Positions 9,838-57,778 of a stretch of 64,000 nt of DNA are shown here, in pieces. The stretch is from IMG/VR virus record IMGVR_UViG_3300043446_003158, positions 1 through 64,000 of that record; one strand, 5' to 3'. The position numbers and the translations under genes are program-made. How positions within the stretch are numbered: position 1 is the first letter of the stretch; each line of letters starts with the position of its first letter. The notes under the pieces were generated by a model, which worked only from the letters and a program-made list of their open reading frames with translations, did not search any database and was not told where the DNA came from. This DNA comes from a virus.

Positions 9838-10638
9838 TTACGCTCCATCTTCATGCCAACATTCATTATATCCATTTTTTTGATCATCATATGGGTAAGA
9901 ATTTAGTTCTTTCTTTGGCCAAACTAAATCAATACCAGTTCTTGGAAAAGATTTAAATATTTTTTTACTTAAACTTTGACTAAGTTCATATGCCTCTTGC
10001 CATTTGGGAGCATAATCATAAAGATATTCGTTAGGATAAAGTAAAAATAATTTAATCCTGTCATCATAGTTAGAACAATAGTGTGCTCCAATATAAGTTT
10101 CTGTTCTCGTATAATGACCATAATACTTCCACAAATCATACTTGCTTATTCTCACTTTGTCAATAAGTCCATTTAATTCTAATGGAATATCAAACATTTT
10201 TAATAAGTGTTCTGTTTTTCCCCAGAAAACATGATCTCTGGGATGAAATAAAAGATGTGGATACATTCCAGGAACAAAAATTCTATCTTCATTCCTATTT
10301 TCAATAAAGAACTGATACATATTCAACATACTTTGATAAGTATATTTCTGATCGGTTCTCATTTTAATTGCATATTCAGTTGTAACTTTCTGCAATCCAG
10401 AAAAAGAAGTTACGATCTGAAGATTTCTATTATCTGTTCCAGGAGTAATTGGAAATTTATTTGAAACAACAAAAAATCTTGAAGTGGGATGATAATTGAC
10501 AATATCATCATCCCAACAAGAAAGAATAATGTTGTTTACGAAAGGTAGTTCAAAGTATGAATCTATAACCTCATTAGTAAATTCATCATATCTTCCTTGC
10601 AGAACAATATCAATTTTTTCAAAGTTATTATTCTGCAT
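9838..10638 (-). CDS. WavE-like lipopolysaccharide synthesis protein
   Basis: DIVLQG, IILSCW, NRNLQIVTSFSGL, YAIKMRTDQ, FHPRDHVFWG. Confidence 0.7.
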   Translation of the reverse strand: MQNNNFEKIDIVLQGRYDEFTNEVIDSYFELPFVNNIILSCWDDDIVNYHPTSRFFVVSNKFPITPGTDNRNLQIVTSFSGLQKVTTEYAIKMRTDQKYTYQSMLNMYQFFIENRNEDRIFVPGMYPHLLFHPRDHVFWGKTEHLLKMFDIPLELNGLIDKVRISKYDLWKYYGHYTRTETYIGAHYCSNYDDRIKLFLLYPNEYLYDYAPKWQEAYELSQSLSKKIFKSFPRTGIDLVWPKKELNSYPYDDQKNGYNECWHEDGA

Positions 10639-13600
10639 CAGATCTTTTTTTCAAGATGAATGTCATAGTGCTTTAAATTTTCAACAATAATATCATAATA
10701 ATCTTCACCAACATTATCATCTTCAGATAAAGATACAAAAATATTTTTGGATTCTTCTACTTTACCCCAATACCATCCAGACAAAGCCTTTTCAAATAAA
10801 AGACCATACTTACCTGGATACTCAACATCAGAAGTTGTTGATGGGTCAAACAATTCACAAATACTTAGTCCTAATGAAGCATACTTGTAGCAGTCATTCC
10901 ATTGATGTCTTCTTTCATGAAATCTAGCAAGTAAGAAATATGCCTCAGGTCTATTTGGAAGAGTGCAGAGAGCTTGTTGAAGTAAAGATATTGCAGTTCC
11001 ATCTCTAGTTCCTTGCTTATCATAACAATGGTGGCATTTGATTAAAGATTCATAGATCATATTCTCATCTTCGTATCTTTCAGATGCTCTCAAAAAATAA
11101 GATAATGCAGGAGCCGTGTGTCCCTCTTTTTCATACCAAAGACCCAAATCATAATTTCTTTGGGGATTTTCTGGATCTAACGAATATTCAGTTAGTAACA
11201 CTTCAAGATCAGTTTTATTCCTAGAAATAGAAATTTCATCATTAGATTCAACTAAATCTAAAATTTTTGATTGATAATTTTTTTTCCACCACCCAATAAC
11301 ATGTTCATATGTTTCTACATGATAATCTTTATTTTCTTTTTCAAGTTCAGAATGACCATAAAAAGTAGATTTAAGATTTTGGTCTTCAACAAAAAGATTT
11401 ACAGAATAAACTTTCCCCAAGTTATAAAATAAAAGATTTTCAGGCATTGGATAAAAATCTGTTCCTGGAATTTCTAATTTATAACAATCTCCTTCGATAT
11501 AAGTTTCAATTATTTTTCTTGCATAATCTCTAGTTAAAATATATGCAGTAACAGACCAATCCATCATTGATCTATTTCTTATTTTTACTTCTTGTTGATT
11601 TTCATTTATACAACAAAGTTGAACACACTCAGCATCTTCTGGTAAATTTTCTATAAAATCATTCCAAGTAAAGTTCCAATATTCAACTGTTTCAAGGCTC
11701 AAATCATCTTCGCAGAAAAATGCATAATCATCTTCAGTTTCTTCATACCATTTTTTAATTGCCTTTAAATGAGATATGCAACACCCAGTTGTTCCAGAGT
11801 CAAGAATATGAAGTTGTTTACCATAAACTACATCGTCACATTCATGAAATCTTTTAGAAATAATCCCATGAAGGTTTGTAACTCCAAGATCTAAAAATTG
11901 TTTGTGTAATTTTTCCCTTCTATCTACACTTTCCTCTAGACTAATGTAATAAACACTAGGAAAATCTACAAATTTAATTTTATTTGGAATAATTTTATCA
12001 GAAGTTAATTTAAAGCCCATTTCTTTCCACCAATTAAGAATTGTATTGTGAGAATTATAATGATGATCATTCAAATCATTAGTAACATTTTCTATTTCAT
12101 AAGAAGATTTAAATGAAACATCTTCAACAAAAAGAGGATAAACATATACTCTATTAGTTAAACCTAAAATAATAGTTTCTACTACTGGAATAACTGCCCA
12201 ATCTGGACGAGTATCTACATCATAACACTTACAGTCTAAATGAAAATAATCATCGTAATAGTATGTATCTATCAATTTTTGTGCATATTCTCTAGTAATT
12301 AAATATGCACAACAAGACCAATCACATGGCCATCTTTTTCTAAACTCAAAAGGATTTAAGTAGTCGGTATAATATTCTCTTAGTAAACAAAGTTGAATAC
12401 AATCCCACTTAGGAGGAAGAATATCCATAAATTCTTCCCAGGTAAAATTCCAGTATTCAACTGTTTGAAGACTTAAATCATCTTCACAGAAGAATGCATA
12501 TTCATCATTTGTACTGTTTAACCATTGTTTAATTGCTTTAAGGTGTGAAGTAACTGGTCCTCTACTACCTTGGCTTAATTTCCATTGACCAACTGCATTT
12601 AAATAATCACTAAGAATTACGTGCTCATCATCATTATATCTTTTGAATATGTGTGAGGTTATATTAGTTACTCCATACTTTTTAAATTTTTCATATAATT
12701 TTTTTCTTCTAAAAGTAGAATTTTCTATGCTAACGTAATGAACTGGTGGAAAATTTTTTAATTTGTTAAAATCATTATCAGTCTCTTCTTTTATACTGGC
12801 AATATAAAACCTATCTTTTTGTTCATCAATTACCCATTCTGTATTTGATTTATTATAATAATCAACTATGTTTTCCAATTTTTGAGAGTTAATTCTATTA
12901 TGTTCCATTGTAAGAACATAATCAGTTTGCCACTCCAATTCATCTCCAAAATATACATTGCTTAAATTAATACGAATAGTCTCTCTAAGATCTTTATCAG
13001 TTTCGGAAGATTTAAAATTTTCAACTCGTTTTGTATCTGGATGAGGTATATGGAACACATGATAATCAAAATCCATTTTCTTGTGCTCCAACCCCACCAT
13101 TTCTAATCTTTTATAGATTTCATCATCTTCAAAAGAATAATATTCACAAAAATCTTCATTATATCCACCAACTTTTAAAAAATTTTCTTTTGATACAAAT
13201 AAAAGACCAGTTAAAAATCTATAATAAGAACTATAAGAATTATAGTAATCAGTTAATTGATCTAAAGACATCTTATTGCGGTCTACAATATAATTACCAG
13301 TTCTTTCATCATAAAATTCATTATTTACAATAGAACTTTTTCCGCTTACAAATGATTGACTATCTATTTTGTACTTATCAAAAAAAGAATAATAACAATT
13401 AAATACATAATCACAATCAACTTTTAGAATATAATCTCCTTTTGCCACAGAAACCGCAAGATTAAGCGGTTGTGGTTGATTAAAATATTTTTGATTCTGA
13501 ACTCTAATAATTTTAATTCTTTCATCTAAAGAAATTAAATGCTCTAAACTTTCATCGGAACTCCAATCAACGATTATTATTTCAGTAATTTCTTTATGAT

Positions 13601-13673
13601 TTAACCAAGAATTTAAAGAAACATTTAAAGCTGAATTGCGATTTTTGCAAGCACAAATTAAAGAAATAGACAT
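10638..13673 (-). CDS. Multidomain glycosyltransferase: GT-A (GT2/GT7-like) + two GT25-like domains + TPR
   Basis: IIIVDWSS, LKVDCD, GGYNEDF..EDDE; twice SHLKAIK..YAFFCEDD; C-terminal TPR-like LQQALCTLPNRPEAYFLLARF. Confidence 0.75.
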   Translation of the reverse strand: MSISLICACKNRNSALNVSLNSWLNHKEITEIIIVDWSSDESLEHLISLDERIKIIRVQNQKYFNQPQPLNLAVSVAKGDYILKVDCDYVFNCYYSFFDKYKIDSQSFVSGKSSIVNNEFYDERTGNYIVDRNKMSLDQLTDYYNSYSSYYRFLTGLLFVSKENFLKVGGYNEDFCEYYSFEDDEIYKRLEMVGLEHKKMDFDYHVFHIPHPDTKRVENFKSSETDKDLRETIRINLSNVYFGDELEWQTDYVLTMEHNRINSQKLENIVDYYNKSNTEWVIDEQKDRFYIASIKEETDNDFNKLKNFPPVHYVSIENSTFRRKKLYEKFKKYGVTNITSHIFKRYNDDEHVILSDYLNAVGQWKLSQGSRGPVTSHLKAIKQWLNSTNDEYAFFCEDDLSLQTVEYWNFTWEEFMDILPPKWDCIQLCLLREYYTDYLNPFEFRKRWPCDWSCCAYLITREYAQKLIDTYYYDDYFHLDCKCYDVDTRPDWAVIPVVETIILGLTNRVYVYPLFVEDVSFKSSYEIENVTNDLNDHHYNSHNTILNWWKEMGFKLTSDKIIPNKIKFVDFPSVYYISLEESVDRREKLHKQFLDLGVTNLHGIISKRFHECDDVVYGKQLHILDSGTTGCCISHLKAIKKWYEETEDDYAFFCEDDLSLETVEYWNFTWNDFIENLPEDAECVQLCCINENQQEVKIRNRSMMDWSVTAYILTRDYARKIIETYIEGDCYKLEIPGTDFYPMPENLLFYNLGKVYSVNLFVEDQNLKSTFYGHSELEKENKDYHVETYEHVIGWWKKNYQSKILDLVESNDEISISRNKTDLEVLLTEYSLDPENPQRNYDLGLWYEKEGHTAPALSYFLRASERYEDENMIYESLIKCHHCYDKQGTRDGTAISLLQQALCTLPNRPEAYFLLARFHERRHQWNDCYKYASLGLSICELFDPSTTSDVEYPGKYGLLFEKALSGWYWGKVEESKNIFVSLSEDDNVGEDYYDIIVENLKHYDIHLEKKI

Positions 13674-13678
13674 ATAAA

Positions 13679-14149
13679 TCAGTTACTTGATATAAACTTT
13701 TTATAAAAAATTGCTTTGTCGGTGCATACACCGAATCCTTTTTTTAAATTTTCTAGATGATCATAATAATTTATTGATTCTGGAAGAACAATGATTCCTT
13801 TTGAGTATGGAAATTGCCCTATCAAAATCCAACCAAATCCTTTACTGGTGATAGTATACCTATCAGTTTCATGCCAAAAATAGTTAAATTCTACCATAGA
13901 TGTAGATAATTTTTCCAGTGCTTCTCTATTTTTACAGTGAATCCATAAAACATCTTTGTGTTTTACCAACCAATTAATAGGAACATGATATTGTGGTTTA
14001 TCATGTCCAAGATAACACTCATTATTTTCAACTCTTAAATCAATCTCAACATCAAATCCTTCAGCAATTGCTTCTTCAATATAATCAACACTATTTTCCT
14101 TGATTGGATTTGGACCAGTCAAATTTCCACGATGAGAAATAATTTTCAT
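13679..14149 (-). CDS. GDPD/PLC-like phosphodiesterase-fold protein
   Basis: True start MKIISHRGNL at 14149, 1 nt after the RLP stop; GFDVEIDL, YLGHD, WIHCKN, FWHETD. Confidence 0.7.
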   Translation of the reverse strand: MKIISHRGNLTGPNPIKENSVDYIEEAIAEGFDVEIDLRVENNECYLGHDKPQYHVPINWLVKHKDVLWIHCKNREALEKLSTSMVEFNYFWHETDRYTITSKGFGWILIGQFPYSKGIIVLPESINYYDHLENLKKGFGVCTDKAIFYKKFISSN

Positions 14150-14150
14150 A

Positions 14151-15389
14151 TCAAAAATCCAACACCCACTCAGGAAGAGAACCTCCACCAGTTTCATATC
14201 CCCACTTATCAATAGCAGCACGAAACTCTGGTCCAGGAGTTTTATCAATTGCCTGACGCATTGCCAGAGCACCTGCCAGAGTACCCCCAGGATGCCCGTG
14301 AACAGCGCCGCCACAGTTAGCAAGGAAGTCTGTTCCAAACTTCTCTGCAGTGGTGTTAACGATCCCTGGATGCATACCACAACTCAATGCTGGAAGAACA
14401 TTTCTATTGTAAAGTGTCGTTAAAGTCTTACGAAGTTCTGTCTCATCATCACTGAGATATCCACCCCACATTCCAGCATGAATGGTATCCACTCCACAAA
14501 GACCAGCAAGATCACAGAGAACATCCCAATCAATACCAAATGCATGTCTCTTATCAGTAAGGATTTTATCTCCACTCTTTTGGTAATGAATAAACATTGG
14601 AAGGTCCATTCTTCTAATTGAATTATAAACACCAAGACCAGACCAGAAATTAATGTGGATACCATTACCACCATTATTTGCAACAAAATTTGCACGTTCA
14701 AGAATGGTGTGATGATCTCCATTAATACAGAAGCAGTAAATTACTCCTCTTCCACATTCATTTACAATGTTTGAAATAAGTTCTACACGATCTTCAAGAC
14801 GGCAGAATGCAGGATTGGAAAGAATTTCATCTTCCTTAATAAAATCAACACCACCATCAAGAAGTTCTTTAACCATATCGGCAAGAGTTTGTGGTGTAAT
14901 GCCTGTTTTAGGTTTTACGATTGCACCAGAAAGTGGTTTATCAAACCTGTTAACGAACCTACGAATACCTTCAATTCCATATTTTGGTCCAAGAAATTGT
15001 GCTTCTACATCAGCAGGAAACTCCAGTTTCTGAAGGCGACAAACTTTAAATACATCAATATCAAGTTGTCCACCCATTACCTGACAGAGAAGATGTGAGA
15101 TACCATCACCTTCCCAATCAGTATTGACTTTGGGGAATCCAATCTTCACTTGCCCAGAGTGAACCCCAGTAAGGTTTTCTTCCGTATCATAGATGACACA
15201 AGATGCTAACTCAAAAAGTTCATCACTCTCCCAGCGATTACGAACCTTTGGATTTCCCACACTCTGCCCAATGGCAAGATTCCAAGCAGCATCTCTCAAA
15301 TCACCAACTTGATGATTTGCTTCAATATAATACGTTGCTACTACACAACGATCTCTTTCTTGTTCTGTTAGTTCTCTAAAAAATTTCAT
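14151..15389 (-). CDS. RuBisCO-like protein (form IV, RLP)
   Basis: GPKYGIEGIR, GAIVKPKTG (K175/K177), GVDFIKEDE (K201/D203/E204), DTIHAG, PALSCG, CGGAVHGHPGG. E60, N123, R295 and K334 equivalents appear substituted. Confidence 0.9.
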   Translation of the reverse strand: MKFFRELTEQERDRCVVATYYIEANHQVGDLRDAAWNLAIGQSVGNPKVRNRWESDELFELASCVIYDTEENLTGVHSGQVKIGFPKVNTDWEGDGISHLLCQVMGGQLDIDVFKVCRLQKLEFPADVEAQFLGPKYGIEGIRRFVNRFDKPLSGAIVKPKTGITPQTLADMVKELLDGGVDFIKEDEILSNPAFCRLEDRVELISNIVNECGRGVIYCFCINGDHHTILERANFVANNGGNGIHINFWSGLGVYNSIRRMDLPMFIHYQKSGDKILTDKRHAFGIDWDVLCDLAGLCGVDTIHAGMWGGYLSDDETELRKTLTTLYNRNVLPALSCGMHPGIVNTTAEKFGTDFLANCGGAVHGHPGGTLAGALAMRQAIDKTPGPEFRAAIDKWGYETGGGSLPEWVLDF

Positions 15390-16060
15390 GCTTCAACCTC
15401 ATTTCTTACTAAGACTAATATCTCATCACCATCAAATCCATATTGTTGATTAGAATTACAAGTTTTTACTTGAGTTATATTACTATAATACTTATCATGC
15501 CCATAAAGTTTAATTTCATCAGCATAACTGTAAATTCTATAAACAATATCTTCAATTATAAGACATCCTCCAGGATTTAAATACTTATAAGCATTTCTAA
15601 TTACTTTAATTTGATCCCAAAACTTATGGCTAGAATCATCTATAATAACATCAAATTTAGTATTAGATTTTTCAAAAGAATTATTAATTGACTCTTCGGA
15701 TTTGACATTCATATAATCATAAAACACATTATGTAAATTTTCAGTTTTGGCATTTTGTATAAAATCCTCTTGATATCTATCTTCAGAAGATTCTCCTACT
15801 TTACAATCCCACCCATAAAGAGTTGCATTTGAAAAGTATTCTCTCCACATTCTCATAGATGCGTTTTTATATATTCCAATCTCACCAAAAACAATATTCT
15901 TATGTCTAATATTAGAAAATAAAAAATTATAAAACGGAGTGTATGCGTGATGCCCCATAGAACGCGCCAGAGGAGATTTATCAGTTCCATACTTTTCACC
16001 AATAAAACACAAATCTGTAGGAGATGAAAAACTATTATACAATATTTGATTAAACTTCAC
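15386..16060 (-). CDS. SAM-dependent (sugar O-)methyltransferase-like protein
   Basis: KYGTDK, HAYTPFY, EIGIYKNASMRMWREYF, FDVIIDDSSH, GGCLIIED; resembles macrolide-sugar O-methyltransferases. Confidence 0.75.
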   Translation of the reverse strand: MKFNQILYNSFSSPTDLCFIGEKYGTDKSPLARSMGHHAYTPFYNFLFSNIRHKNIVFGEIGIYKNASMRMWREYFSNATLYGWDCKVGESSEDRYQEDFIQNAKTENLHNVFYDYMNVKSEESINNSFEKSNTKFDVIIDDSSHKFWDQIKVIRNAYKYLNPGGCLIIEDIVYRIYSYADEIKLYGHDKYYSNITQVKTCNSNQQYGFDGDEILVLVRNEVEA

Positions 16061-16062
16061 TT

Positions 16063-16383
16063 TTAAACCTCAAACTTATCTGATGGAATAGAAGGAACTT
16101 TAACGACAACTAATGTACAATCTTCAAGAAAAACTGGATCTGCAACTTCTCCTTTTTCAAAAATAAATACATCTCCACTATTTAATTCTTTTCCTTGAAT
16201 GGTCATTTTTCCAGAAACAAGAACATTATATTCTACACTTTCTTTATGGTAGTGCGGTGCCCAATACTCTCCCTTTTTATGCGTAAGTAACCCAACTTCA
16301 AATTGGTCTGTTTTCAATACTGAAGGTTTAAAGTTTCCTATAAACCAACCTCTCACATAATCAGTAATTTTTGATGTGTTCAT
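16063..16383 (-). CDS. Cupin-fold protein
   Basis: GWFIGNF, HYHKESVEYNVLVSG, GDVFIFEKGE. Confidence 0.8.
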   Translation of the reverse strand: MNTSKITDYVRGWFIGNFKPSVLKTDQFEVGLLTHKKGEYWAPHYHKESVEYNVLVSGKMTIQGKELNSGDVFIFEKGEVADPVFLEDCTLVVVKVPSIPSDKFEV

Positions 16384-17092
16384 ACTTTTCTAAAAAAGAA
16401 TTCAAATCTTCTGGAACTCCAACTGGATTATGTTGATAATTTGGAATATGATGTATTCCAACTTTAAGTCCTTTCTTAATCATATGATTATAAGATGGGC
16501 CAACATAAAACTCACCATTAGGTGCTCTATCATTACATTGTATCATATCTTCTGCACTTTGTACAAAATATTTCCCCTTTCTCCAATAATGAATTCCATT
16601 TAAGGATATATCACTTATAACTTCTTTTTCTTTTATTTCCTGAACAAATCCTTTACGATCAATTCTAGCGTAACTATTTTTTGGTGTAGATGTGGTATAA
16701 GTCACAATCAACCCATCATACTTATAATATCTTGCAGATGTTAAAAATAAATCAGAATCCCACCACATAATCTGATCACAGTTAGCAATTATTAATTCAT
16801 CCTCATTATTAATAAAATCTTTAAACAAAAGACAACTGGAAGCAGGTCCTTCTGTAGTTTCTTCTACGCTAATAATTTTTGAAGTTGGAAGTATGGAATG
16901 TAATAATGTACATACTTGATCATAATAACTATCTTTTCTTATGATAAAATGATAGGTTCCCGTTAATCCAAGAGAATGAACTGCTCTTTGAATCATTGCA
17001 ATTCCATCAATTTCAATTAATGGTTTTGGAATTTTATAGGTATCTCTAGGAAATCTAGTCCCTTCACCTGCCATTGGAATTATTATATTCAT
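16361..17092 (-). CDS. Sugar-phosphate nucleotidyltransferase
   Basis: IIIPMAGEGTRF...KPLIEI, EGPA, IANCDQ, EKEVIS, NGEFYV. Confidence 0.85.
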   Translation of the reverse strand: MNIIIPMAGEGTRFPRDTYKIPKPLIEIDGIAMIQRAVHSLGLTGTYHFIIRKDSYYDQVCTLLHSILPTSKIISVEETTEGPASSCLLFKDFINNEDELIIANCDQIMWWDSDLFLTSARYYKYDGLIVTYTTSTPKNSYARIDRKGFVQEIKEKEVISDISLNGIHYWRKGKYFVQSAEDMIQCNDRAPNGEFYVGPSYNHMIKKGLKVGIHHIPNYQHNPVGVPEDLNSFLEKYEHIKNY

Positions 17093-17098
17093 TACTTT

Positions 17099-17968
17099 TT
17101 ATTCAAACATTACCTTAACTATTTTTTTAGTTGTTAAATTATTTTTAGTATAATCAAAAAGATATTCATTTAATTCATCATAACAAGGATGAATTTCGTA
17201 TCTTCTGGCATATTTATTGGTTTCTTTAATAATATCTTTTGGAAAATTTACCATTGTTAAAGGAGGACAATCTTCAATATCTGGAAAATAAGGAATGCAT
17301 TTGTTTGCCAATATTTCATAATGCCTCATACAATTCCATTGAGATTTTTTCCAAGTCATACCATAATAAGAACTTGCATAATCATTATAGTAATCATTTT
17401 CATTATCGTAAATATAAGTTTCAAATTTTCCTGGAATAATGTAAGCAAATATTTTTTCTTTAGTTGGAGTATAATTAATTAATTGTGATTCTGGAATTCC
17501 AAAAGTAATTGGATTTGCAGCTCCAGGATCTATCAAATGAGTTTTCCAAATAGTTCCATAGGAATTTAGACCATGAGCATGTGCAAAATTCCAAGTATTA
17601 TCTGAACCATCAATTAAATGAATTTTATCTTTTGAATAATATTGTTTTACATATTCAAAATAATCTAAACATTGTCTTTTATTAAATCCTTCATGAGTAT
17701 AGATGCATCCATAAATTATAGCATCATAAAATCTTGATTTAATTTTTTCAATTATTGTTTCTGGAGAATCTAGTTTTGGAGTATGTTCTAACTTACCAAA
17801 TATTGTAAAACCTTTTCCATAAATGTGAGATCTTTCTGTAAAAGATTTTAACATATAAGAAGGATAATGAGTTTCATATACTTCTATACCATTATCAATC
17901 AAACCATGATAAATTGTATCTGATTGATAATCTGGATACTCAAAATTATAGACAAATAAAACCTTCAT
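17099..17968 (-). CDS. Putative glycosyltransferase-like protein
   Basis: LIDGSD, YYNDYASSYYG, WNCMRHYEILANKCIPYF (GT-B-like C-terminus); start MKVLF overlaps the upstream stop. Confidence 0.5.
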   Translation of the reverse strand: MKVLFVYNFEYPDYQSDTIYHGLIDNGIEVYETHYPSYMLKSFTERSHIYGKGFTIFGKLEHTPKLDSPETIIEKIKSRFYDAIIYGCIYTHEGFNKRQCLDYFEYVKQYYSKDKIHLIDGSDNTWNFAHAHGLNSYGTIWKTHLIDPGAANPITFGIPESQLINYTPTKEKIFAYIIPGKFETYIYDNENDYYNDYASSYYGMTWKKSQWNCMRHYEILANKCIPYFPDIEDCPPLTMVNFPKDIIKETNKYARRYEIHPCYDELNEYLFDYTKNNLTTKKIVKVMFE

Positions 17969-18612
17969 ATACGCTTTCTTGCAAAAGCAATTCCCCAATC
18001 TTTAGGGCAACAATTTTGCGTGATTTCCCATTTAGTTTTATCTAAAGCATTAACAAATTCTTTAGGTCCAGGATGACATGATACATCATGAAATCCAACA
18101 ACACCACTATCAGATAATAAATTTGTATATTCCCAATCTCTTAAAACTTGATTAATACTATGCCACCCATCAATAAAAATAAAATCAAATTTTACATCAT
18201 CAGTTCCTAATACCATTTTAAAAATATCAAGATTTTCATCATAAAATGAACTATCATTTTGAATAGTGTGAATATTATTTTCAGCGTTTCTTAAGAATGA
18301 TCTATCAGCAATATCTAGACCAACATAAACAGTATCCTTTTTTTTATTTTTTGTTAAAACATGAACAAAAGAATCTTCTGCATTCCTACCTACACCTATT
18401 TCCAAAATTGCTTTTGCAGTATCACGAACTTTTAAGAAATTTTCAAGTAAATAATACCTATTACAAATAGTAACTTCTTCAGGATAAATCATGTTACCTT
18501 CAAAATCACATTTATGCCCATATCTATATGGATGAGAATCTGCTACACCATCAACATCATCATATGCAGTGAATGTTCTAATATCTTTTGTTAAATCGTT
18601 TTCCCATTTCAT
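17965..18612 (-). CDS. Class I SAM methyltransferase (Methyltransf_24-like)
   Basis: ILEIGVG, FIFIDGWHS, GVVGFHD; paralogue of the C-terminal domain of 20704..23916. Confidence 0.8.
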   Translation of the reverse strand: MKWENDLTKDIRTFTAYDDVDGVADSHPYRYGHKCDFEGNMIYPEEVTICNRYYLLENFLKVRDTAKAILEIGVGRNAEDSFVHVLTKNKKKDTVYVGLDIADRSFLRNAENNIHTIQNDSSFYDENLDIFKMVLGTDDVKFDFIFIDGWHSINQVLRDWEYTNLLSDSGVVGFHDVSCHPGPKEFVNALDKTKWEITQNCCPKDWGIAFARKRI

Positions 18613-18638
18613 AAGTAATTAATCCGAATAAAAAAAAT

Positions 18639-18646
18639 TATTTATT
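18639..18646 (-). promoter_or_regulatory. T4-like late promoter (AATAAATA)
   Basis: Intergenic NATAAATA 27 nt upstream of the ATG at 18612. Confidence 0.55.
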
Positions 18647-18649
18647 GTT

Positions 18650-19399
18650 TTAATATAGGTTGGGATACCAAATCCTACGAAAATCAATATTATTATTAAT
18701 CCTAACTCTAAAATCACACCTGTTTATATTGATTTTTTTCAAATTAAAATATTTTAAAAGCATTGTTTCTGGATGATATGGAACACCTTCAATTTCAATT
18801 ATATTATTATAAAAATTGGAATATTCATCCATTACATTTGATGGTCCAAATGCAAATTGATCATTAATTCCACCACACCAATCTTCACCCTTTGGTATGT
18901 TTAGACTTTTTGGATATTCTTCAAGATTGAGTGTTTTGTTTTCAAAATCACTATCAAACCTCATTCTAATCACAGTATCAAAAGTCATATTATTTTCTTT
19001 TTCATATATAACTTTTAGATTATTTGACATGTTAATTGAATGATGCATACTAATTGGTCCCACATCATACCGAGGTTTGATGCACCCTTCGGGGTTTTCA
19101 AATGGAAGTAGATTTAATGAGTTATAAATTTCTTGAAACTTATGTTTTTTAGTTTCATAATCTTCAATTAAAAGTTTTTCATAATTATATTTTTCTAAAA
19201 AACTAAATTGAGTTTCAACAATATTATTATACTCTTTAAATTCTAATCCAGAAACAGTTTTTAAAAATTCTTCTCTATTAGAAATTTTCCAAGTATGAAT
19301 AAAAATTTTTACATGGTCATTTGGAAAAATATTTTTTATACTTTTCAATCCAATATGAGGATATCTAATAGCCCCAGATAAACAAACTGCTATTTTCAT
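18650..19399 (-). CDS. Hypothetical GT-A-like protein (KIAVCLSG type)
   Basis: MKIAVCLSGAIR, VFIHTW-like FIHTW, VIRMRFD, NDQFAFG, HPETML. Confidence 0.5.
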   Translation of the reverse strand: MKIAVCLSGAIRYPHIGLKSIKNIFPNDHVKIFIHTWKISNREEFLKTVSGLEFKEYNNIVETQFSFLEKYNYEKLLIEDYETKKHKFQEIYNSLNLLPFENPEGCIKPRYDVGPISMHHSINMSNNLKVIYEKENNMTFDTVIRMRFDSDFENKTLNLEEYPKSLNIPKGEDWCGGINDQFAFGPSNVMDEYSNFYNNIIEIEGVPYHPETMLLKYFNLKKININRCDFRVRINNNIDFRRIWYPNLY

Positions 19400-20388
19400 G
19401 CTTTAAAAATATAATCTTGTGTAAATGATTTAGAAACTCTCAGCAAGTATGCCGCATTATCCTGGAATCCAAATGTGATTAAGTAATCATCACCATACTC
19501 ACACATACCAACCGCAAATTCTATTTCTGCATTTAAGAAAGAAAATCTTTCAGAAACTTTAACAATATTCCAATCATTGTCCCAAACTACAAATCTATGA
19601 CGATAAGTTCCATCTTTTCTACCTGCTGGACTTTGGAAAAGAAAAGTTTCATGATTCAAGCAAAATCTATACTCGCCAAGTTTAAGAACTTGTGATCCAC
19701 CACGAAGATCTATACAACCTAAATCTTGCCAATCTTTAACTGCAACTCTTTCAGTAGTGTTAGATTTAATATCATATTTAACAACTTCAGTTCCATTTGT
19801 CCACTTAACAAAATGAAATGGAAGATCTAAAATAGGCATCCAATTTTTTTCGCAATACGAAGTTTCATCACCTTTATCAACTCCAGGAACAGGAATACGA
19901 TATTGATTTACTTCCTTCACACCACTATCAGTTATCTCAATTTCAGATAACTCCATTCTACCCTGTCCATTATATGTGGTGTCTCTTCTTACTCCACAAG
20001 TATAGAGTTTACCGTCCCATCTCATAATACGACAATCTTCCAATCCAACAAATTCCCATAGTTCTTGATCTGGAAATTTTGAAGTATCAATGTGATGATA
20101 CCATTTCATATTCATAGTATCATCCATTTCGCACATTATATTTTTTGTGCGAAGGCGAAGATCATTTTCTGGATGAATATAAACTAGAGGACCCCAGTGA
20201 TGTTCAAACTTTTTCTTTTCAGAATGATATAAAGTATAATTAATATTTCTCAAATTAACTAAAATTCTACCATTATCATTATAAATGGATGGATTTGTAA
20301 CAGCTGGTCCTTTTAAATCTGAAGAAGGAATAATAAGAGGATGAATACTTCCACCATTTTCCAACGCAAGTTTTACAAAATTTGACAT
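19396..20388 (-). CDS. Five-bladed beta-propeller glycosidase/phosphorylase-like protein (GH43/GH130 clan)
   Basis: NPSI, GLEDCRI, CEKNWMP, LRGGSQ, IEFAVG. Confidence 0.6.
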   Translation of the reverse strand: MSNFVKLALENGGSIHPLIIPSSDLKGPAVTNPSIYNDNGRILVNLRNINYTLYHSEKKKFEHHWGPLVYIHPENDLRLRTKNIMCEMDDTMNMKWYHHIDTSKFPDQELWEFVGLEDCRIMRWDGKLYTCGVRRDTTYNGQGRMELSEIEITDSGVKEVNQYRIPVPGVDKGDETSYCEKNWMPILDLPFHFVKWTNGTEVVKYDIKSNTTERVAVKDWQDLGCIDLRGGSQVLKLGEYRFCLNHETFLFQSPAGRKDGTYRHRFVVWDNDWNIVKVSERFSFLNAEIEFAVGMCEYGDDYLITFGFQDNAAYLLRVSKSFTQDYIFKA

Positions 20389-20440
20389 AATTATTTCGTT
20401 CTTAATTTTATTATACAATAGATTTTAATTATTTTCAAAT

Positions 20441-20703: not shown

Positions 20704-23700
20704 TTATTTTTTATATATAGCAAATCCTATTCCCCAATCTTCTGGGCAAAGATTTTCTTGAACATCCCATTTATTCTTATCTAGTGCATTAACAAATCTG
20801 TTAGGGCCGAAATGGCATGTCGTATCATGAAATCCAACTACACCTCCAGGATTTAGAAGTTTTGTATATTCCCAATCTTTAAGAACTTGATTGATGCTGT
20901 GATACCCATCAATAAAAATAAAGTCAAATTTATCAACACCTAAAGATTTAAATAATTGAACATTATACTCATAATTAGAACTATCTGTTTTAAACGTATA
21001 TACTTTATTTTGAGAATCATTTAAGAAACTTCTGTCTTCAATATCAATCCCAATATAAATTGAATCTGGATTTTTATTTTTTGAGAAGATGTGTGCAAAA
21101 GACCTATCATCATTTCTGCCAATTCCTATTTCTAGAATTGCTTTACAATTTTCTTTAACAGTCAAAAACTTTTCTTCAAGATTCTTGAGGTTGCAGTCAC
21201 TAATTTCAGGAGGAGCAGAAAAAGTATTGTCTGGATTCAAATCATATCGTAAAGGATGTGCTCCTACTCCAGGAAAATCTTGGTCATCCCTTGGGTCATG
21301 ATACCGAATATCTTGAATTAAATCATCTTCCCATTTAAATTTTTTTTTTAAATTATTTGGAATTTCACCATCTTTAATCCAAAGTTCTTTTGAAAATTCA
21401 ATCCATTCTTTTACTCTTGTGTCCCAACTATAATAATCATTACAAACTTCTACTTGACGAGTGTTGTCAAATTTACCTTCATGATATTCTACAATCGTCT
21501 TCTTAAGTTCAGAAGCAAACTTAACAATGTGCTTGTTACGATCTGGAATGTATCCATAATGACGGGCAAATCCAAGACCAGTTTCTGGAAGAGCGGCAAG
21601 ATTGCTAGAAAGAACAGAACACCCAGCAGCAAGTGCTTCAATCATACAAATACAAGAAGTCTCCTGGAAGTATGATGGATAAGCAAAGATATGAGTCTTC
21701 ATTAATTGTTCACGAATCTTGGAGTTATTTGTTCTTGTATGGCGAACAACTCTACTGTCAGCATTAGCAAGTGCTAAACAATACCGAAGAAACTTTTCTT
21801 CATCCTCACAAACATGTGCATATTCGTATGTTTGGAATCCATCTAGATACTGCTTTTTCCTTTCATCGGGATCAAGTTCGTGGAAAATATGCAATTCAAA
21901 ATCCTCATCTGGGATAAGACGAATTGCTTCCAAAAGAAGATCTAATCCACGAATAGGATTAGGATGAAAAATTAATTGTAACTTTCCTTCAGGTTTTTTA
22001 TGTGGTTCAAATGGTTGAATAGCATTCTTAAGAACGTAGCACTTTTCCATAGGAAGATTAAACTTCTCACCAAACCGTTCATATTGCCAGTTAGAAACAA
22101 AAACATATGCTTTAAAATGTTTTTGAAACTGCTTATCCATTAACTGTTCAAGATTTTGCTCATTATGATGAGGATGCAACCAAACAATATTAGAATTATC
22201 TGGAGCAATTATATTATCACCAGGAATAACACACCAATGCCAATCTGCCAAATCTGGAGCTTTAGGGAGAACAAGATCTTGCCAGGCACGACCCATAATT
22301 TCCGTTCCTCCAGTTCCATCTGGATTTAATGATGCTTCCAAAAGTGGAGGCATATTATTGTGCAAATATTCTGGTTTTGTGTTTACCAAATCTTTTTCGG
22401 ATTTGTATAAATCTGAGATTGAGTCAATAGTCATATCTGGAAAATTGATTTTAATATCGTTTATTAATGTTTTGTTTTTACTAATTACACCTAACCCATG
22501 AGAATTTATAAAATTAATCTTATAATAACCAGTTATTTCATCAAAAAATTTCCCAACAAGTTCTTTAAAACTAACTGTATCATGAAATAATATTATACCA
22601 TCTTCTTTAACAAATTTATTCCAATTTTCAAAATCATTTTTGGCAGCATCGTAAGAATGATGCCCATCAATATGTAAAATATCAATACTCTTATTCCATT
22701 GTTTTGATATTTCAGAAAAGTCTCCAAATATAAAATTAAAATTATCAAGATTTAATTTTTTTGAAATATCCAAAACAAACTTATCAATTTCTTCATTCTC
22801 TCTTCCAGAATAAGAATCTATTCCATAAACTTTTCCATTTGAATATAAACTCATCAAAAATGATGAGTATCCGTAATCAACACCTAATTCAACAATAGTT
22901 TCTGGATTTTTATATTCAATTAACCATTTAATAAACTTTCTATGCCCTACTGGTTTTTGATTCCACGCAGATGGAATATTAGATATAATATCTTCAATAT
23001 CATTGTCTGGAAGATTCTTTACATAGTTTTTAAAATCTGTATTAGTTTCCCAAGAAAAATTTTCAATAACTTCTTTATTTTTAAACTCTTCAATTGCATT
23101 CATATTATACATTTCTTTTGGAAAAATTTTTATAATTATGTCTTGAAGATCTTTTGGAAAATTATTAAAACTAAAAAATTTAAGAGGATCGGATCTATGA
23201 AATAAATCTTTTCTAGTTTTTATACATTCTAGTATATTTTTTTCATTTTTATATTTTTCTTTATTAAATTCTTGATGAGAAAAAGATTCTATTTTGTGTT
23301 GAATTGTTTTAACATCACCAAAATATGAGAAGTGCCATCCACTATTATTGTAGCAATTAAACTCACCTCTTTGCCATCTCAATTGTGTAAATTTTATTTT
23401 AGAAGCATTTTGAACTTTAACAAAAATTGTCCCTGGCCAAACGTTAGTGTTTACTGTAGTAAAATTAAAATATAAACCAAAAAAGTTTGCGGTAGAACAA
23501 AAATTTTGTGGAAGATTTTCTACCCTTAACTGAGATATTAATCTTTTATCAGGTATTTCATCAACATCACTTAACATTAAAAGGTCATCAGGAGAAAACT
23601 GTTGTAGATTTTCTCCCATGTAATCTCTCTGACCGAATTCTATTTTCCAAAAATCAGATTCAAAATCACATTTATCAGTCTCTCCAAACTTACAATCACT

Positions 23701-23916
23701 GATATCTGGTTCATAATAAAGACGGATAATTTTTTTCTTTATTTCATCATCCAATTCATTAATATACTCATCAAGATAATAAGGTTTTTCTTTTCCAGAA
23801 AAAGTATATTTAGATTCACAGACTAAAAAGCAATCAACAACATCTTTAAGGTATTCAGTTCTTAATTTTAACATATTCTTTTCATTAAAGAATATAAAAC
23901 TATCAATTACTTTCAT
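20704..23916 (-). CDS. Multidomain enzyme: GT17-like + methyltransferase + GT4-like (GT-B) + methyltransferase
   Basis: IDSFIFFNE..LSDVDEIP..GWHFSY; VELGVDYG..HIDGHH..FHD; GGTE..RGLDLL..FQETSCICMIEALAAG; LEIGIG..IDGYH..FHD. Confidence 0.8.
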   Translation of the reverse strand: MKVIDSFIFFNEKNMLKLRTEYLKDVVDCFLVCESKYTFSGKEKPYYLDEYINELDDEIKKKIIRLYYEPDISDCKFGETDKCDFESDFWKIEFGQRDYMGENLQQFSPDDLLMLSDVDEIPDKRLISQLRVENLPQNFCSTANFFGLYFNFTTVNTNVWPGTIFVKVQNASKIKFTQLRWQRGEFNCYNNSGWHFSYFGDVKTIQHKIESFSHQEFNKEKYKNEKNILECIKTRKDLFHRSDPLKFFSFNNFPKDLQDIIIKIFPKEMYNMNAIEEFKNKEVIENFSWETNTDFKNYVKNLPDNDIEDIISNIPSAWNQKPVGHRKFIKWLIEYKNPETIVELGVDYGYSSFLMSLYSNGKVYGIDSYSGRENEEIDKFVLDISKKLNLDNFNFIFGDFSEISKQWNKSIDILHIDGHHSYDAAKNDFENWNKFVKEDGIILFHDTVSFKELVGKFFDEITGYYKINFINSHGLGVISKNKTLINDIKINFPDMTIDSISDLYKSEKDLVNTKPEYLHNNMPPLLEASLNPDGTGGTEIMGRAWQDLVLPKAPDLADWHWCVIPGDNIIAPDNSNIVWLHPHHNEQNLEQLMDKQFQKHFKAYVFVSNWQYERFGEKFNLPMEKCYVLKNAIQPFEPHKKPEGKLQLIFHPNPIRGLDLLLEAIRLIPDEDFELHIFHELDPDERKKQYLDGFQTYEYAHVCEDEEKFLRYCLALANADSRVVRHTRTNNSKIREQLMKTHIFAYPSYFQETSCICMIEALAAGCSVLSSNLAALPETGLGFARHYGYIPDRNKHIVKFASELKKTIVEYHEGKFDNTRQVEVCNDYYSWDTRVKEWIEFSKELWIKDGEIPNNLKKKFKWEDDLIQDIRYHDPRDDQDFPGVGAHPLRYDLNPDNTFSAPPEISDCNLKNLEEKFLTVKENCKAILEIGIGRNDDRSFAHIFSKNKNPDSIYIGIDIEDRSFLNDSQNKVYTFKTDSSNYEYNVQLFKSLGVDKFDFIFIDGYHSINQVLKDWEYTKLLNPGGVVGFHDTTCHFGPNRFVNALDKNKWDVQENLCPEDWGIGFAIYKK

Positions 23917-24647
23917 TGTTTAAGACTTTGTAATGGTTTTGTTATATCTATGGTCTTGTGATATTCATTTCTAGTTCCTAATTGATCTTTGTGAATTGCT
24001 TTATATTGAGTAATCAAATTATTGAATGAACAATTACCAAACAAAGAATAAAGTTGTTTAAAAATTTCCGCGTCAAGGCAAAACGTTTGGAAAGATGGAA
24101 ATCTTATATCAACATCTTTTCTATGAAAAACATTAGTTCTCCAAGAAACTTGACTAGCATCTAGTTGTAAATGTGGATTTAAATCATCAATTCTATTTAA
24201 ATGATAATTATTATTGAATTTTATATCATTTAAAGAACGCACTTCAAATGGATCAAAAATAACAGAGTGTCCATATGAATAATTTTTTTGAGGACTTCTT
24301 TCATACCATTTACATAAACCTTCAAGATATCCAGGATATAGAGCATCATCGTCGCATAAAATTATGCAAATATCAGAATCACTTTCTAAAACTGCCCTAT
24401 TCCAATAATGACCATGAGTGCTAAATCTTTTTTGTTTTCCTTCAAAAGTATCATGAGTATGATAAAATTTTACTTTTTCAGTTTCACTACCTAGTATATC
24501 TTCAACAATTGGTTTTCCTGGATAATCACTAGAGTCATCAACGAAAATCCATTCCCAGTCTTTATGAGATTGATACTTTATAGACTCCGCAGTATATCTA
24601 ATCATATTAGGACGATTAAAATAAGAAGACAATATGGTTATTTTCAT
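23913..24647 (-). CDS. GT2-family glycosyltransferase
   Basis: YFNRP, WIFVDDSS, IILCDDD. Confidence 0.75.
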   Translation of the reverse strand: MKITILSSYFNRPNMIRYTAESIKYQSHKDWEWIFVDDSSDYPGKPIVEDILGSETEKVKFYHTHDTFEGKQKRFSTHGHYWNRAVLESDSDICIILCDDDALYPGYLEGLCKWYERSPQKNYSYGHSVIFDPFEVRSLNDIKFNNNYHLNRIDDLNPHLQLDASQVSWRTNVFHRKDVDIRFPSFQTFCLDAEIFKQLYSLFGNCSFNNLITQYKAIHKDQLGTRNEYHKTIDITKPLQSLKQ

Positions 24648-26851
24648 TTAAGTGCTTCTCTAATAAAATTTTCCATAGGGGTCTTCTTAAAGATATCAAG
24701 ACCTTTTTCTGCCTGCAAATCAAGTTCTTGAGGATTTTTTAGAAGTTCATATGCCTTTTCAACAAAGTTTTCATACGTTGTCGTAAAAACAGTACCCTCC
24801 ATGTAATCTGGAAAATCAGTTTCTGAACTTCTTTCACAAAGAACAGGAACTTTATTTTGAATCAAATGACTTACACGAACCATTTCAAAAATTTTATTCT
24901 CATGATTATGTAAATTAATCACCAATTTTGCTCTCTTAATATATGCATCACGATCATCACCATAAACACTATGGAAATGAACAAAGTTAATGTTTTTATT
25001 TTCGGCAAACTGATTTAAAATTTTAATTCTCCTATCAGAAGTATACATGTAAGCAAGAATATCAATGTCTCTTTCCTCTGGTTTATTTCTTTCAAAGTAA
25101 GAAATCTCAGGAACATATCCAATCTGAACATGTTTAATATTATCTACACCAGCTTTACGAAGAATATTACTGTTTCTCATTGAATAATCCCACACCTCAA
25201 GACCGCGATACTTACGACACCAACGAAGACATTCTGGACTATCTCTCATTTGTTCCAAAGAATAAATGATTGTATTTTTTGGGACATCATGTCTTACCAT
25301 ATCTACTGGACAGTGATGCATTCCAAATACGATATTTCGGGCATCCTGTCTAAATTCATTTACACTGTTCGTAACCTCATACCCCATTCGTTGTAGAGTG
25401 AAGAATACCGCAGCTTCAATCTCATGGAATACATTAGAGTGAATATTAAAATGATTATCAGGAACGATGCGACACATGTTAAATTTATTTGTTGCAGGTG
25501 TAGCATATGAAATTGAAGAATTTAAAAATTGAGAATTTTGATTATGGTAATCATTATCCTTTAATAAAACTTCTTTTAATACAGCATTATCAACTACGGG
25601 ATTAGCAGATAAGGGTGCTTTTTCCTGCCTAACATGTATGTAATGAAGTTTTCCATTACCAGATCCAATCCATTTTTTATAAGCTTCTTTATTATCCTGT
25701 TTTGAATAATACTTATTAATATTTAAAGGATCAGAAAGAGTTTTGATATAATCAGTTTTTGCCCACCAAAAATTTCCAGCAAATGGATAATAATCTTTAT
25801 AAAAATTAGATCCAATTACATCATACCCATCATTTAGTTTTTGAATACATTCTTCCCAGTTTTCAATACAATGCTTTTGCATGTATTGTCTCCATTTTTT
25901 ATCTTCATCAATAAGTCCATGTTGTATGTAAGAACTATTTGTTATTCCTTTATTATGGAAGTATAAAACATATCCTTCATTTTTAAGGGAATAATCATAC
26001 AATTCTTTTAGAGTTTGCCCCTCGTAAATATTTTCTTGGGCATTAATGTCACGATACGAAATAATATCTACAAATGGATACTTTCTAATGATATATTCAG
26101 AAACTAATTGATCGTAATTTTTTATTATACGTTCTTCACCTACTTTTAATTCTCCACTCAATGCCAATGGCATAGTAATGCATACGTTAACTTTTGCTTT
26201 TTTACTAAGACCAGTTTTTTTGAGAAGTCCTAATTGTTCATTAATCCACCAAACCCACATTCCAGAAGTATTGGGAATAAAAAGATGATAAAAAATACTT
26301 AACATGTCTTTCTTTTGATTATTTTTAATGCCGTAAAAATACAAATCTTTTGAATGTGAATTTACTTCAAATCCATATTCAGAAAAATATTGCTCTAAAT
26401 TTAAATCTTCAAAATGAGATTGATTTAAATTTTTATAATAATTCCATCCTTTTTGGATTGTAAATGGAGAATCTTCTGGTTTATGATTAGAAGTTCCATG
26501 TTCTTCTCTTCCATCAGTTGCACAAGTAAAAAAAACTAAACCATCTTTTTTACACATGCGTATCATGTTTAAAAAAGTTTCTTTCCAATAAGGATTATGC
26601 TCAAAACATTCTGCGGAAAATACTGTATCAAAAGTTTCATCTGGGGCATCATAGTTTTGCCCCTCACAGACAACATCGACACAGTATCCAGGTTCTAAAT
26701 CTACTCCAGTATAATCACACTTATCAAAAAATCCTTTGATAGTTCCATTGATATTTAAACTTCCAATTTCAAGAACTTTTTTTTCCTTGAAAAATTCTGG
26801 AAATCTTTGCCTTAAATTTTCTGTGTAATCAAATTGTTCTTGATGTGCCAT
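24644..26851 (-). CDS. Methyltransferase + HxKG/AGNFWW domain + GT-like C-terminal domain
   Basis: VLEIGS..GVDL..ECFEHNP; YFHNKG..FAGNFWWAK; KLVINLH..FEMVRVSHL. Confidence 0.65.
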   Translation of the reverse strand: MAHQEQFDYTENLRQRFPEFFKEKKVLEIGSLNINGTIKGFFDKCDYTGVDLEPGYCVDVVCEGQNYDAPDETFDTVFSAECFEHNPYWKETFLNMIRMCKKDGLVFFTCATDGREEHGTSNHKPEDSPFTIQKGWNYYKNLNQSHFEDLNLEQYFSEYGFEVNSHSKDLYFYGIKNNQKKDMLSIFYHLFIPNTSGMWVWWINEQLGLLKKTGLSKKAKVNVCITMPLALSGELKVGEERIIKNYDQLVSEYIIRKYPFVDIISYRDINAQENIYEGQTLKELYDYSLKNEGYVLYFHNKGITNSSYIQHGLIDEDKKWRQYMQKHCIENWEECIQKLNDGYDVIGSNFYKDYYPFAGNFWWAKTDYIKTLSDPLNINKYYSKQDNKEAYKKWIGSGNGKLHYIHVRQEKAPLSANPVVDNAVLKEVLLKDNDYHNQNSQFLNSSISYATPATNKFNMCRIVPDNHFNIHSNVFHEIEAAVFFTLQRMGYEVTNSVNEFRQDARNIVFGMHHCPVDMVRHDVPKNTIIYSLEQMRDSPECLRWCRKYRGLEVWDYSMRNSNILRKAGVDNIKHVQIGYVPEISYFERNKPEERDIDILAYMYTSDRRIKILNQFAENKNINFVHFHSVYGDDRDAYIKRAKLVINLHNHENKIFEMVRVSHLIQNKVPVLCERSSETDFPDYMEGTVFTTTYENFVEKAYELLKNPQELDLQAEKGLDIFKKTPMENFIREALK

Positions 26852-26852
26852 A

Positions 26853-43618: not shown

Positions 43619-43626
43619 TATTTATC
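43619..43626 (-). promoter_or_regulatory. T4-like late promoter (GATAAATA)
   Basis: NATAAATA 23 nt upstream of the giant-protein ATG. Confidence 0.6.
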
Positions 43627-57612: not shown

Positions 57613-57778
57613 AAGCACTCCTTGCCCAAGCACGACTTAAACTATTTACATAAGAACAAGATCTTTGTTTTTTTCCACAATAAGGACATACTGCATCTGG
57701 AGGATCTGCATTATATCCTTCTGGCGTATACATTCTATTTTTTTGATTTTGTTCTCGTTTACGTTTACGATGGTTCAT
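57593..57778 (-). CDS. Small hypothetical protein with CPYC motif
   Basis: DPPDAVCPYCG..CSYVNSL..C; ATGA overlap. Confidence 0.55.
   Translation of the reverse strand: MNHRKRKREQNQKNRMYTPEGYNADPPDAVCPYCGKKQRSCSYVNSLSRAWARSACAKKYR

Follow-up and report, generated by a model that had tools for sequence, protein, structure and literature searches.

A phage RuBisCO-like protein linked to a conserved nucleotidyltransferase cassette: a putative role in the synthesis of an activated sugar

To our knowledge, CO2 fixation and catabolic or salvage routes are the only settings in which enzymes with the RuBisCO fold have been described. Among the RuBisCO-like proteins (RLPs), MtnW (YkrW, form IV-YkrW) is the 2,3-diketo-5-methylthiopentyl-1-phosphate (DK-MTP-1-P) enolase, which enolizes a monophosphate without carboxylation. 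OiaX, the RLPs of the apiose and hamamelose pathways, and the 5-methylthioribulose-1-phosphate (MTRu-1-P) 1,3-isomerase of R. rubrum isomerize, decarboxylate or transcarboxylate keto-sugar phosphates, and all of them are catabolic. In sugar activation, the GDP-D-glycero-alpha-D-manno-heptose pathway comprises the GmhA isomerase, the HddA kinase, the GmhB HAD phosphatase and the HddC nucleotidyltransferase. Here, an RLP encoded by an uncultured virus is compared with these systems. Its gene (14151..15389, minus strand) lies in a 64-kb stretch, positions 1 to 64,000 of the IMG/VR record IMGVR_UViG_3300043446_003158, which is the first third of a 177,187-bp viral contig and is called the window throughout this paper. 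The RLP is best explained as the conserved heart of a mobile three- or four-gene cassette, in which it is accompanied by a nucleotidyltransferase, a small cupin and a short GDPD-type phosphodiesterase (mini-GDPD). We infer, with a probability of roughly 60%, that this cassette produces, from a common sugar phosphate, an unusual nucleotide-activated sugar that the surrounding glycosyltransferases would use.

The RLP shares the RuBisCO fold and the carbamyl-lysine/Mg site with MtnW, but it is only about 30% identical to it, and the MtnW representative in our tree (P0254) falls in a distant clade. The scores of the RLP are far under every equivalog cut-off in NCBIfam, including those for MtnW (TIGR03332, 121 bits against 513.6; NF007095, 167 against 409) and for the 3-oxo-isoapionate-4-phosphate decarboxylase OiaX (NF042437, 158.6 bits against 700). 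The OiaX-like representatives (P0172 group) stand on the far side of a 100%-supported split from the clade of this RLP. A grouping with the methionine-salvage enolases, raised by the initial annotation as a competing placement, was looked for and is absent, as seen from the separate clade and the scores below the cut-offs. No mtn gene is annotated among the neighbors of the RLP, either in the window or at the loci with annotated neighbors. The logic of the heptose pathway, in which an isomerase, a phosphoesterase and a nucleotidyltransferase act in turn on a ketose phosphate, resembles that of the cassette; structures of the HddC type match the nucleotidyltransferase profile, and fusions of HAD and nucleotidyltransferase domains and an SIS gene neighbor in SAR11 add to the resemblance. 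Unlike this pathway, the cassette contains neither an SIS isomerase nor a GHMP kinase, and we know of no heptose route that uses an RLP or a GDPD-type enzyme.

Divergent RLPs of phages are themselves already published (Jaffe, Castelle, Dupont and Banfield, Mol Biol Evol 2019; PMC6389311). About 80 phage "Form IV-like" RLPs were reported there, located on myovirus-like contigs from many environments, grouping with Beckwithbacteria and devoid of the carboxylase residues, and their function was left open. The clade described here likewise joins phage sequences with one from Beckwithbacteria (L098) at full support (Shimodaira-Hasegawa-like approximate likelihood ratio test, SH-aLRT, 100). Because the sequences of that study are not in our tree, the identification with the "Form IV-like" clade rests on this shared phage and Beckwithbacteria membership. 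Partner genes are not mentioned in the accessible portions of PMC6389311, whereas a cassette, gene fusions and a spread to SAR11, DPANN archaea, Nonomuraea and Azospirillum are described here. For the cassette, its fusions, its spread and the anabolic role proposed for it, full-text literature searches found no paper.

Relatives of the RLP number in the thousands in metagenomes, and its clade comprises at least 2,600 proteins. Those that are 75-91% identical sit on phage-like contigs with the same island of glycan genes, and the SAR11 relatives are about 62-67% identical, one of them in the complete genome CP159823.1. Among 50,697 GenBank phage records, from which that of the window itself may be missing, no RLP relative was found by tblastn and no match to window positions 13000-18000 by megablast, but 226 IMG/VR contigs encode such a protein; the initial statement that RuBisCO-family genes are rare in viruses is therefore true of the GenBank records and does not extend to uncultured viruses. 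A genome scan returned no cyanobacterial RLP homolog, so that this gene, in contrast to psbA and talC, is not copied from the host. Based on a tree of 133 representatives of the RuBisCO superfamily, the window RLP was placed in a clade of 45 rows, which is split from the other 88 rows at SH-aLRT 100. Its members come from viral contigs, SAR11, Beckwithbacteria, Saccharibacteria, Woese- and Micrarchaeota, Verrucomicrobia, Planctomycetes and Elusimicrobia, as well as from Nonomuraea rosea and Azospirillum oleiclasticum. Among the remaining 88 rows are those labeled form III-like (P0154, P0177), OiaX-like (P0172) and MtnW (P0254); these outgroup labels were assigned in this analysis, with names of cluster members available for one outgroup clade only. 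Two short contigs carry the full cassette in the viral-type order under cellular names. One (L087, WTHI01000081.1, 4.6 kb) is binned as "Methanobacteriota archaeon" and its RLP is 82% identical to that of the window; the other (L088, DORI01000002.1, 3.3 kb) is binned as "Crocinitomicaceae bacterium", and its four genes are 99-100% identical to one IMG/VR viral locus, with an RLP 66% identical to that of the window. Both look like mis-binned phage fragments, and therefore their taxon labels should not be counted as cassette hosts.

The RLP is a complete protein of 412 amino acids. It matches Pfam RuBisCO_large (PF00016) with an E value of 2.8e-43 (148.7 bits, cut-off 30.1), the N-terminal domain PF02788 is borderline (20.6 bits, cut-off 20.7), and 99 PDB chains of RuBisCOs and RLPs are matched at E ≤ 1e-3, which places it within the RuBisCO large-subunit superfamily. 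Among solved structures, form III RuBisCOs and several RLPs are its best relatives, each about 30% identical to it. By its sequence, the protein is assigned to this superfamily and to the "Form IV-like" clade, outside the MtnW, OiaX and carboxylase families; its score against TIGR03326 is 203.6 bits (cut-off 497). The residue pattern was read from an alignment to the P. horikoshii RuBisCO (2cwx) and from an alignment of 24 sequences of the clade. K175, K177, K201, D203, E204, S379, G381 and G403 are retained in all 24 sequences. Throughout the same 24 and in the window RLP, E60 is replaced by G (in the motif GQS), T173 by I and K334 by Y. The window RLP further carries N for T65, P for W66, G for N123 (in GGQ) and S for H298, each of which is found in 23 of the 24 sequences, and Y for R295, a position occupied by F or Y in 23/24. 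Newly conserved are Q296 (24/24) and a K or R at 297, and position 294 varies (H in 15/24, F in 7/24). The catalytic and substrate residue set used for the carboxylating RuBisCOs of forms I-III (E60, T65, N123, T173, K175, K177, K201, D203, E204, H294, R295, H298, H327, K334, S379, G381, G403 and G404) is thus incomplete. The RLP thus retains the apparatus for enolization, namely the carbamyl-lysine/Mg2+ site and K175, and its clade has lost the residues that serve CO2 addition, hydration and cleavage, and the second phosphate site.

These alignments bear out the initial annotation, which had described a complete RLP with the carbamylated-Lys/Mg site, K175 and K177 kept and with E60, N123, R295 and K334 replaced. 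The carboxylated product that it had also envisaged is unlikely, because K334 and E60 are replaced in 24/24 and N123 in 23/24 sequences of the clade. Its remark that the gene is more GC-rich than its neighbors is correct (GC 0.405 against 0.23-0.32; GC at third codon positions, GC3, 0.245 against 0.10-0.19). A recent transfer of the RLP, which was considered on account of this higher GC, is not supported, since GC3 is raised only modestly and no gene of the island is more conserved than the RLP (cyanophage-type loci share 82-91% identity).

The sugar-nucleotide and glycan context of the RLP reaches well beyond a single operon. In the window, the genes of the chain abut, with neighbors overlapping or lying 1-6 nt apart: the cupin overlaps the nucleotidyltransferase by 23 nt, and a methyltransferase overlaps the start of the RLP by 4 nt. 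The chain of nucleotidyltransferase, cupin, methyltransferase, RLP, phosphodiesterase, tetratricopeptide-repeat (TPR) glycosyltransferase and WavE protein was initially reported as abutting or overlapping and is so, except that the phosphodiesterase has to be shortened, its true start being the ATG at 14149, one base past the RLP stop, which gives 156 amino acids in place of the 233-amino-acid open reading frame (ORF). When all ORFs of 86 viral and SAR11 loci were clustered, the order nucleotidyltransferase (~240 amino acids), cupin (~107 amino acids), RLP and a ~150-amino-acid protein was found to be nearly invariant on viral contigs, and the SAR11-type loci showed the ~150-amino-acid protein followed by nucleotidyltransferase and RLP, without the cupin. 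The same genes occur in other orders at 44 additional loci from named genomes, as RLP-nucleotidyltransferase, GDPD-RLP-cupin-nucleotidyltransferase or RLP-nucleotidyltransferase-cupin. The lineages with permuted orders are SAR11, Beckwithbacteria, Saccharibacteria, Woese-, Nano- and Micrarchaeota, Verrucomicrobia, Planctomycetes and Elusimicrobia, together with Nonomuraea rosea and Azospirillum oleiclasticum.

After dereplication at 80% RLP identity, with a flank of at least 3 kb required on both sides, 40 loci were left, drawn from phages, SAR11, bacteria of the candidate phyla radiation (CPR), DPANN archaea, Nonomuraea and Azospirillum. In 38 of these 40 loci, the RLP has a nucleotidyltransferase no more than 3 kb away; the cupin is present in 25 and the mini-GDPD in 27, and all three partners occur together in 20. 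Two fusions were found, one of RLP and nucleotidyltransferase (P0123, 667 amino acids) and one of mini-GDPD and RLP (P0160). The complete cassette is present in two cultured bacteria, Azospirillum oleiclasticum RWY-5-1-1 and Nonomuraea rosea JCM 17326. Because the order is permuted across domains of life and fusions occur, functional coupling is indicated rather than inherited synteny. A conserved neighborhood outside this phage, which had been predicted, is hence found for the set of nucleotidyltransferase, cupin, RLP and mini-GDPD in phages, bacteria and archaea; WavE, which had been included in the set, does not belong to it and is, like the methyltransferase and the particular glycosyltransferases, a variable accessory. 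A complex prediction for RLP and mini-GDPD scored 0.00 and weighs neither way. In one phage subgroup (IMG/VR loci L033-L042), genes for an APH-like kinase, a 3-dehydroquinate-synthase-like sugar-phosphate cyclase, a short-chain dehydrogenase/reductase and a radical SAM enzyme come after the cassette and hint at a cyclitol or heptose-derived branch in that lineage.

The first core gene encodes the nucleotidyltransferase (243 amino acids; 16361..17092, minus strand), which matches Pfam NTP_transferase (PF00483; E 1.2e-7, 32 bits, cut-off 21.2) and in whose family the G-x-G-x-R...K signature (G9, G11, R13, K23) is invariant. The family profile matches PDB entry 4evw best (4.7e-34), an uncharacterized protein, followed by mannose-1-phosphate guanylyltransferases, RmlA and HddC at about 1e-10 to 1e-7, and it is not close to cytidylyltransferases of the IspD/TarI type. 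The enzyme is accordingly assigned to the RmlA/GMPP superfamily of sugar-1-phosphate nucleotidyltransferases. Some lineages carry it as a fusion with a HAD domain, and one such HAD-nucleotidyltransferase fusion of SAR11 adjoins an SIS gene of the GmhA type. The second core gene encodes a minimal metal cupin (106 amino acids; 16063..16383, minus strand) with an invariant metal motif HxH(x4)E(x6)G (H44, H46, E51, G58). Its scores against Pfam Cupin_7 and Cupin_2 (23.2 and 21.2 bits) are under the cut-offs of about 27, and the motif and the AlphaFold2 model (predicted local distance difference test, pLDDT, 97) place it in the cupin superfamily. The best Foldseek matches are single-domain cupins (E 7e-6), among them KdgF, putative sugar-phosphate isomerases and two phosphomannose isomerases of Thermococcus (7zvm and 7zvy), so the modeled fold resembles that of mini phosphomannose isomerases. 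The fourth core gene, after the RLP, encodes the mini-GDPD (156 amino acids; 13679..14149, minus strand), for which no Pfam or NCBIfam match was obtained. The motifs H6-R7, E18-N19, E35-x-D37, G48-H49-D50 and W69-x-H71-x-K73 are invariant in 30 sequences, the profile matches the GDPD 7e0v (E 2.8e-4), and the top Foldseek matches of the AlphaFold2 model (pLDDT 92.6) are all GDPD enzymes (probability 1.0, query TM-score 0.6). These results place it in the GDPD superfamily, where it is apparently a shortened (~150 against ~240 amino acids) and complete phosphodiesterase with an intact set of catalytic motifs.

Glycan genes surround the cassette in every lineage. They include glycosyltransferases (GTs) of the families GT1, GT2, GT9, GT11, GT17, GT25 and GT61, WavE, UDP-galactopyranose mutase, a GDP-mannose-dehydratase-like protein, methyltransferases of the FkbM and Methyltransf_24 (MT24) types, DUF7796 proteins and radical SAM enzymes, and no gene of methionine salvage or of the AMP pathway is annotated beside the RLP at the loci with annotated neighbors. 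An anabolic role is the best reading because of the linkage to the nucleotidyltransferase, the cupin and mini-GDPD partners, the permuted orders and fusions, and these surroundings. The sugar-nucleotide role put forward in the initial annotation is thus backed by a non-carboxylating RLP in a conserved glycan and nucleotidyltransferase context, whereas the order of the enzymatic steps is conjectural. In the pathway that we propose, the RLP would enolize a ketose phosphate, leading to isomerization or epimerization without carboxylation, and the cupin may perform an aldose-ketose or keto-isomerization. The mini-GDPD would process a phosphate ester or cyclic phosphate so as to leave an anomeric phosphate, a step that the HAD domain fused to the nucleotidyltransferase could take over in some lineages, and the nucleotidyltransferase would form the nucleoside diphosphate (NDP) sugar. 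In this phage, the NDP-sugar would feed an island of about 20 kb of glycosyltransferase and methyltransferase genes beside giant fiber genes, and the glycan might be placed on virion fibers or on the envelope of the infected cell. Another order is conceivable, in which the RLP acts on the product of the nucleotidyltransferase, because the RLP-nucleotidyltransferase fusion would allow it.

A more tentative proposal, on which we would not yet rely, is that this RLP clade performs the first biosynthetic reaction known for the RuBisCO superfamily, directed toward an undescribed nucleotide sugar for surface decoration. The RLP would then enolize or isomerize a ketose phosphate or an NDP-linked ketose, and phages, SAR11, CPR bacteria and DPANN archaea would decorate their surfaces with the resulting sugar; a possible target in this phage is a Thr-rich collagen-like tail fiber with G-T-Q triplets, encoded about 30 kb away. 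If true, this would give the RuBisCO superfamily an anabolic role and point to an undescribed activated sugar. The groups in question are abundant, comprising cyanophages of fresh and marine waters, SAR11, CPR bacteria and DPANN archaea, and it is their surface glycans that govern phage adsorption and grazing. The cassette lends itself directly to testing, as it consists of four small soluble proteins and has two cultured carriers.

Several points weigh against the synthesis of an activated sugar. All characterized RLPs that we know of are catabolic or salvage enzymes, and, as H294 varies in the clade, the reaction may be unlike that of every RLP studied so far. A kinase or mutase that would phosphorylate C1 is not evident in the cassette. 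The known activity of GDPD enzymes is the hydrolysis of phosphodiesters, and the usual NDP-sugar route offers no evident step for a diesterase. SAR11-type cassettes lack the cupin, and no mini-GDPD was detected in 13 of the 40 loci; as neither is universal, the minimal functional unit may be the RLP with the nucleotidyltransferase.

Instead of an activated sugar, the nucleotide-activated product of the cassette might be a head group other than a sugar, for example the phosphate of a polyol, a keto-acid or a glycerate-type compound, to be put on glycans as a phosphodiester, with the mini-GDPD serving as a phosphotransferase or an editing diesterase and not in precursor synthesis. The GDPD-type active site, which works on phosphodiesters, would fit such a function, as would the retained P1 phosphate site and remodeled P2 site of the RLP. 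Nucleotidyltransferase families related to that of the cassette activate alditol and ketose phosphates, as in CDP-ribitol, CDP-arabinitol and CDP-glucitol. The profile of the cassette enzyme is, however, nearest to hexose- and heptose-1-phosphate enzymes (RmlA, GMPP, HddC) and not to IspD/TarI, and a small soluble mini-GDPD that is fused to the RLP in P0160 better suits a metabolic step than the modification of a glycan, so that we regard a non-sugar product as rather unlikely.

Still less probable, in our estimation, is a catabolic or salvage function, in which the RLP would serve, in the infected cell, to recycle pentose phosphates of the 5-deoxy or methylthio type or those derived from nucleotides, and would lie in the glycan island by chance. 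Chance is excluded by the adjacency of the nucleotidyltransferase in 38/40 loci across domains, by the permuted orders and by the fusions. The best PDB matches do include form III RuBisCOs of the AMP pathway besides RLPs, but the scores are far below the cut-offs for MtnW, OiaX and form III, and the clade is separate. Methionine salvage uses an enolase, a phosphatase and a dioxygenase, which the set of RLP, phosphoesterase and cupin recalls; none of mtnA, mtnB, mtnK, deoA and e2b2 is annotated beside the RLP at the loci with annotated neighbors. The phage carries the pentose-phosphate auxiliary genes talC, zwf and gnd, as a salvage function might suggest, yet the genome scan gave no cyanobacterial host homolog of the RLP. 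A true carboxylase/oxygenase that has an atypical active site and acts on ribulose-1,5-bisphosphate or a similar bisphosphate might be suggested by the intact Mg/carbamate site, K175 and K177 and by a conserved K/R297 that could bind a second phosphate. It is very improbable given that K334, N123, E60, T173, R295 and H298 are replaced across the clade (23-24/24), that H294 is variable, and that no small subunit, phosphoribulokinase or ribose-1,5-bisphosphate isomerase is found at the loci with annotated neighbors.

The contig that carries the window comes from a freshwater metagenome; it has a GC content of 34.2%, 11 tRNA genes and a completeness of about 90% by CheckV. Based on its T4-type major capsid protein Gp23 (E 1.5e-150), its gp32 single-stranded DNA-binding protein, ThyX, psbA, talC, zwf and gnd, and an auxiliary-gene block about 75% identical to that of Synechococcus myoviruses, it is assigned to a T4-like cyanomyovirus. 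The cassette and its flanks are covered at about 97-98% identity by contigs of an independent freshwater study of 2022, which shows that the glycan island is not an assembly chimera. The concern that the contig might be bacterial or chimeric is settled by these phage genes and the near-identical contigs.

The accessory genes differ more among loci. The S-adenosylmethionine-dependent methyltransferase between cupin and RLP (224 amino acids; 15386..16060, minus strand; Pfam Methyltransf_31 and Methyltransf_24) is present at this position only in a few related loci. Two contigs from the source sample join 15388 to 16061, so that exactly this gene is missing, and a genotype without 15386-16060 co-occurs as a presence/absence polymorphism. 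Downstream of the cassette lie a multidomain glycosyltransferase with GT2/GT7C, GT25 and TPR domains by Pfam (10638..13673, minus strand), with homologs in about 30 of 86 loci, and a WavE-like protein (9838..10638, minus strand; Pfam WavE, E 4.6e-12). Upstream, a 299-amino-acid protein, a Methyltransf_24 protein, a DUF7796 protein and a 340-amino-acid protein are encoded (17099..20418, minus strand). DUF7796 homologs occur in 47/86 loci; their clusters in the ESM Atlas are named capsular polysaccharide biosynthesis proteins, which is taken as a lead only. The 299- and 340-amino-acid proteins have no Pfam or NCBIfam match, and the ESM Atlas gave a weak GT1-like lead for the former. The rest of the island (20704..30421, minus strand) encodes a GT17+MT24+GT1 protein of 1070 amino acids, a GT2 protein, a Methyltransf_23 (MT23)+GT1-like protein of 735 amino acids, an MT24 protein and three others that fit no clear family. 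The C-terminus of the 1070-amino-acid protein (20704-23916) is 55% identical to the stand-alone 215-amino-acid Methyltransf_24 protein (17965-18612), and three adjoining genes (24644-28974, minus strand) share a domain of about 240 amino acids without a Pfam family, at 37-42% identity.

Beyond the island, a 4380-amino-acid ORF (30454-43596, minus strand) shows no family match other than a weak SH3_10 stretch near residue 4060, and separates the glycan island from two Gly_rich_2 proteins (43625-44587 and 44591-45652). The next ORF (3097 amino acids; 45657-54950, minus strand) has 27 runs of collagen-like sequence (1989 residues), ends in a Peptidase_S74 intramolecular chaperone domain and is probably a giant tail fiber. 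In its G-X-Q triplets, the Y position is Q in 92% and K in 1%, and X is T, L or V (T 29%). BclA is an O-glycosylated collagen-like fiber of Bacillus spores, and by analogy with it the Thr-rich fiber might be conceived as a target of the glycan island. GT25 is the family of collagen galactosyltransferases, and a 2-oxoglutarate-Fe(II) oxygenase (9218-9832, minus strand) adjoins the GT25-domain protein (10638-13673, minus strand). Lysine hydroxylation and glycosylation of the fiber by these two proteins was considered but discarded, the repeats being nearly devoid of Lys and Pro. A general linkage between the cassette and collagen-like proteins was also rejected, a collagen-like gene lying within 10 kb in only 10 of 87 loci. 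A tryptophan-halogenase-like protein (56482-57633, minus strand; phrog_2928, E 4.5e-68) is encoded immediately upstream of the gnd-zwf-talC-psbA block.

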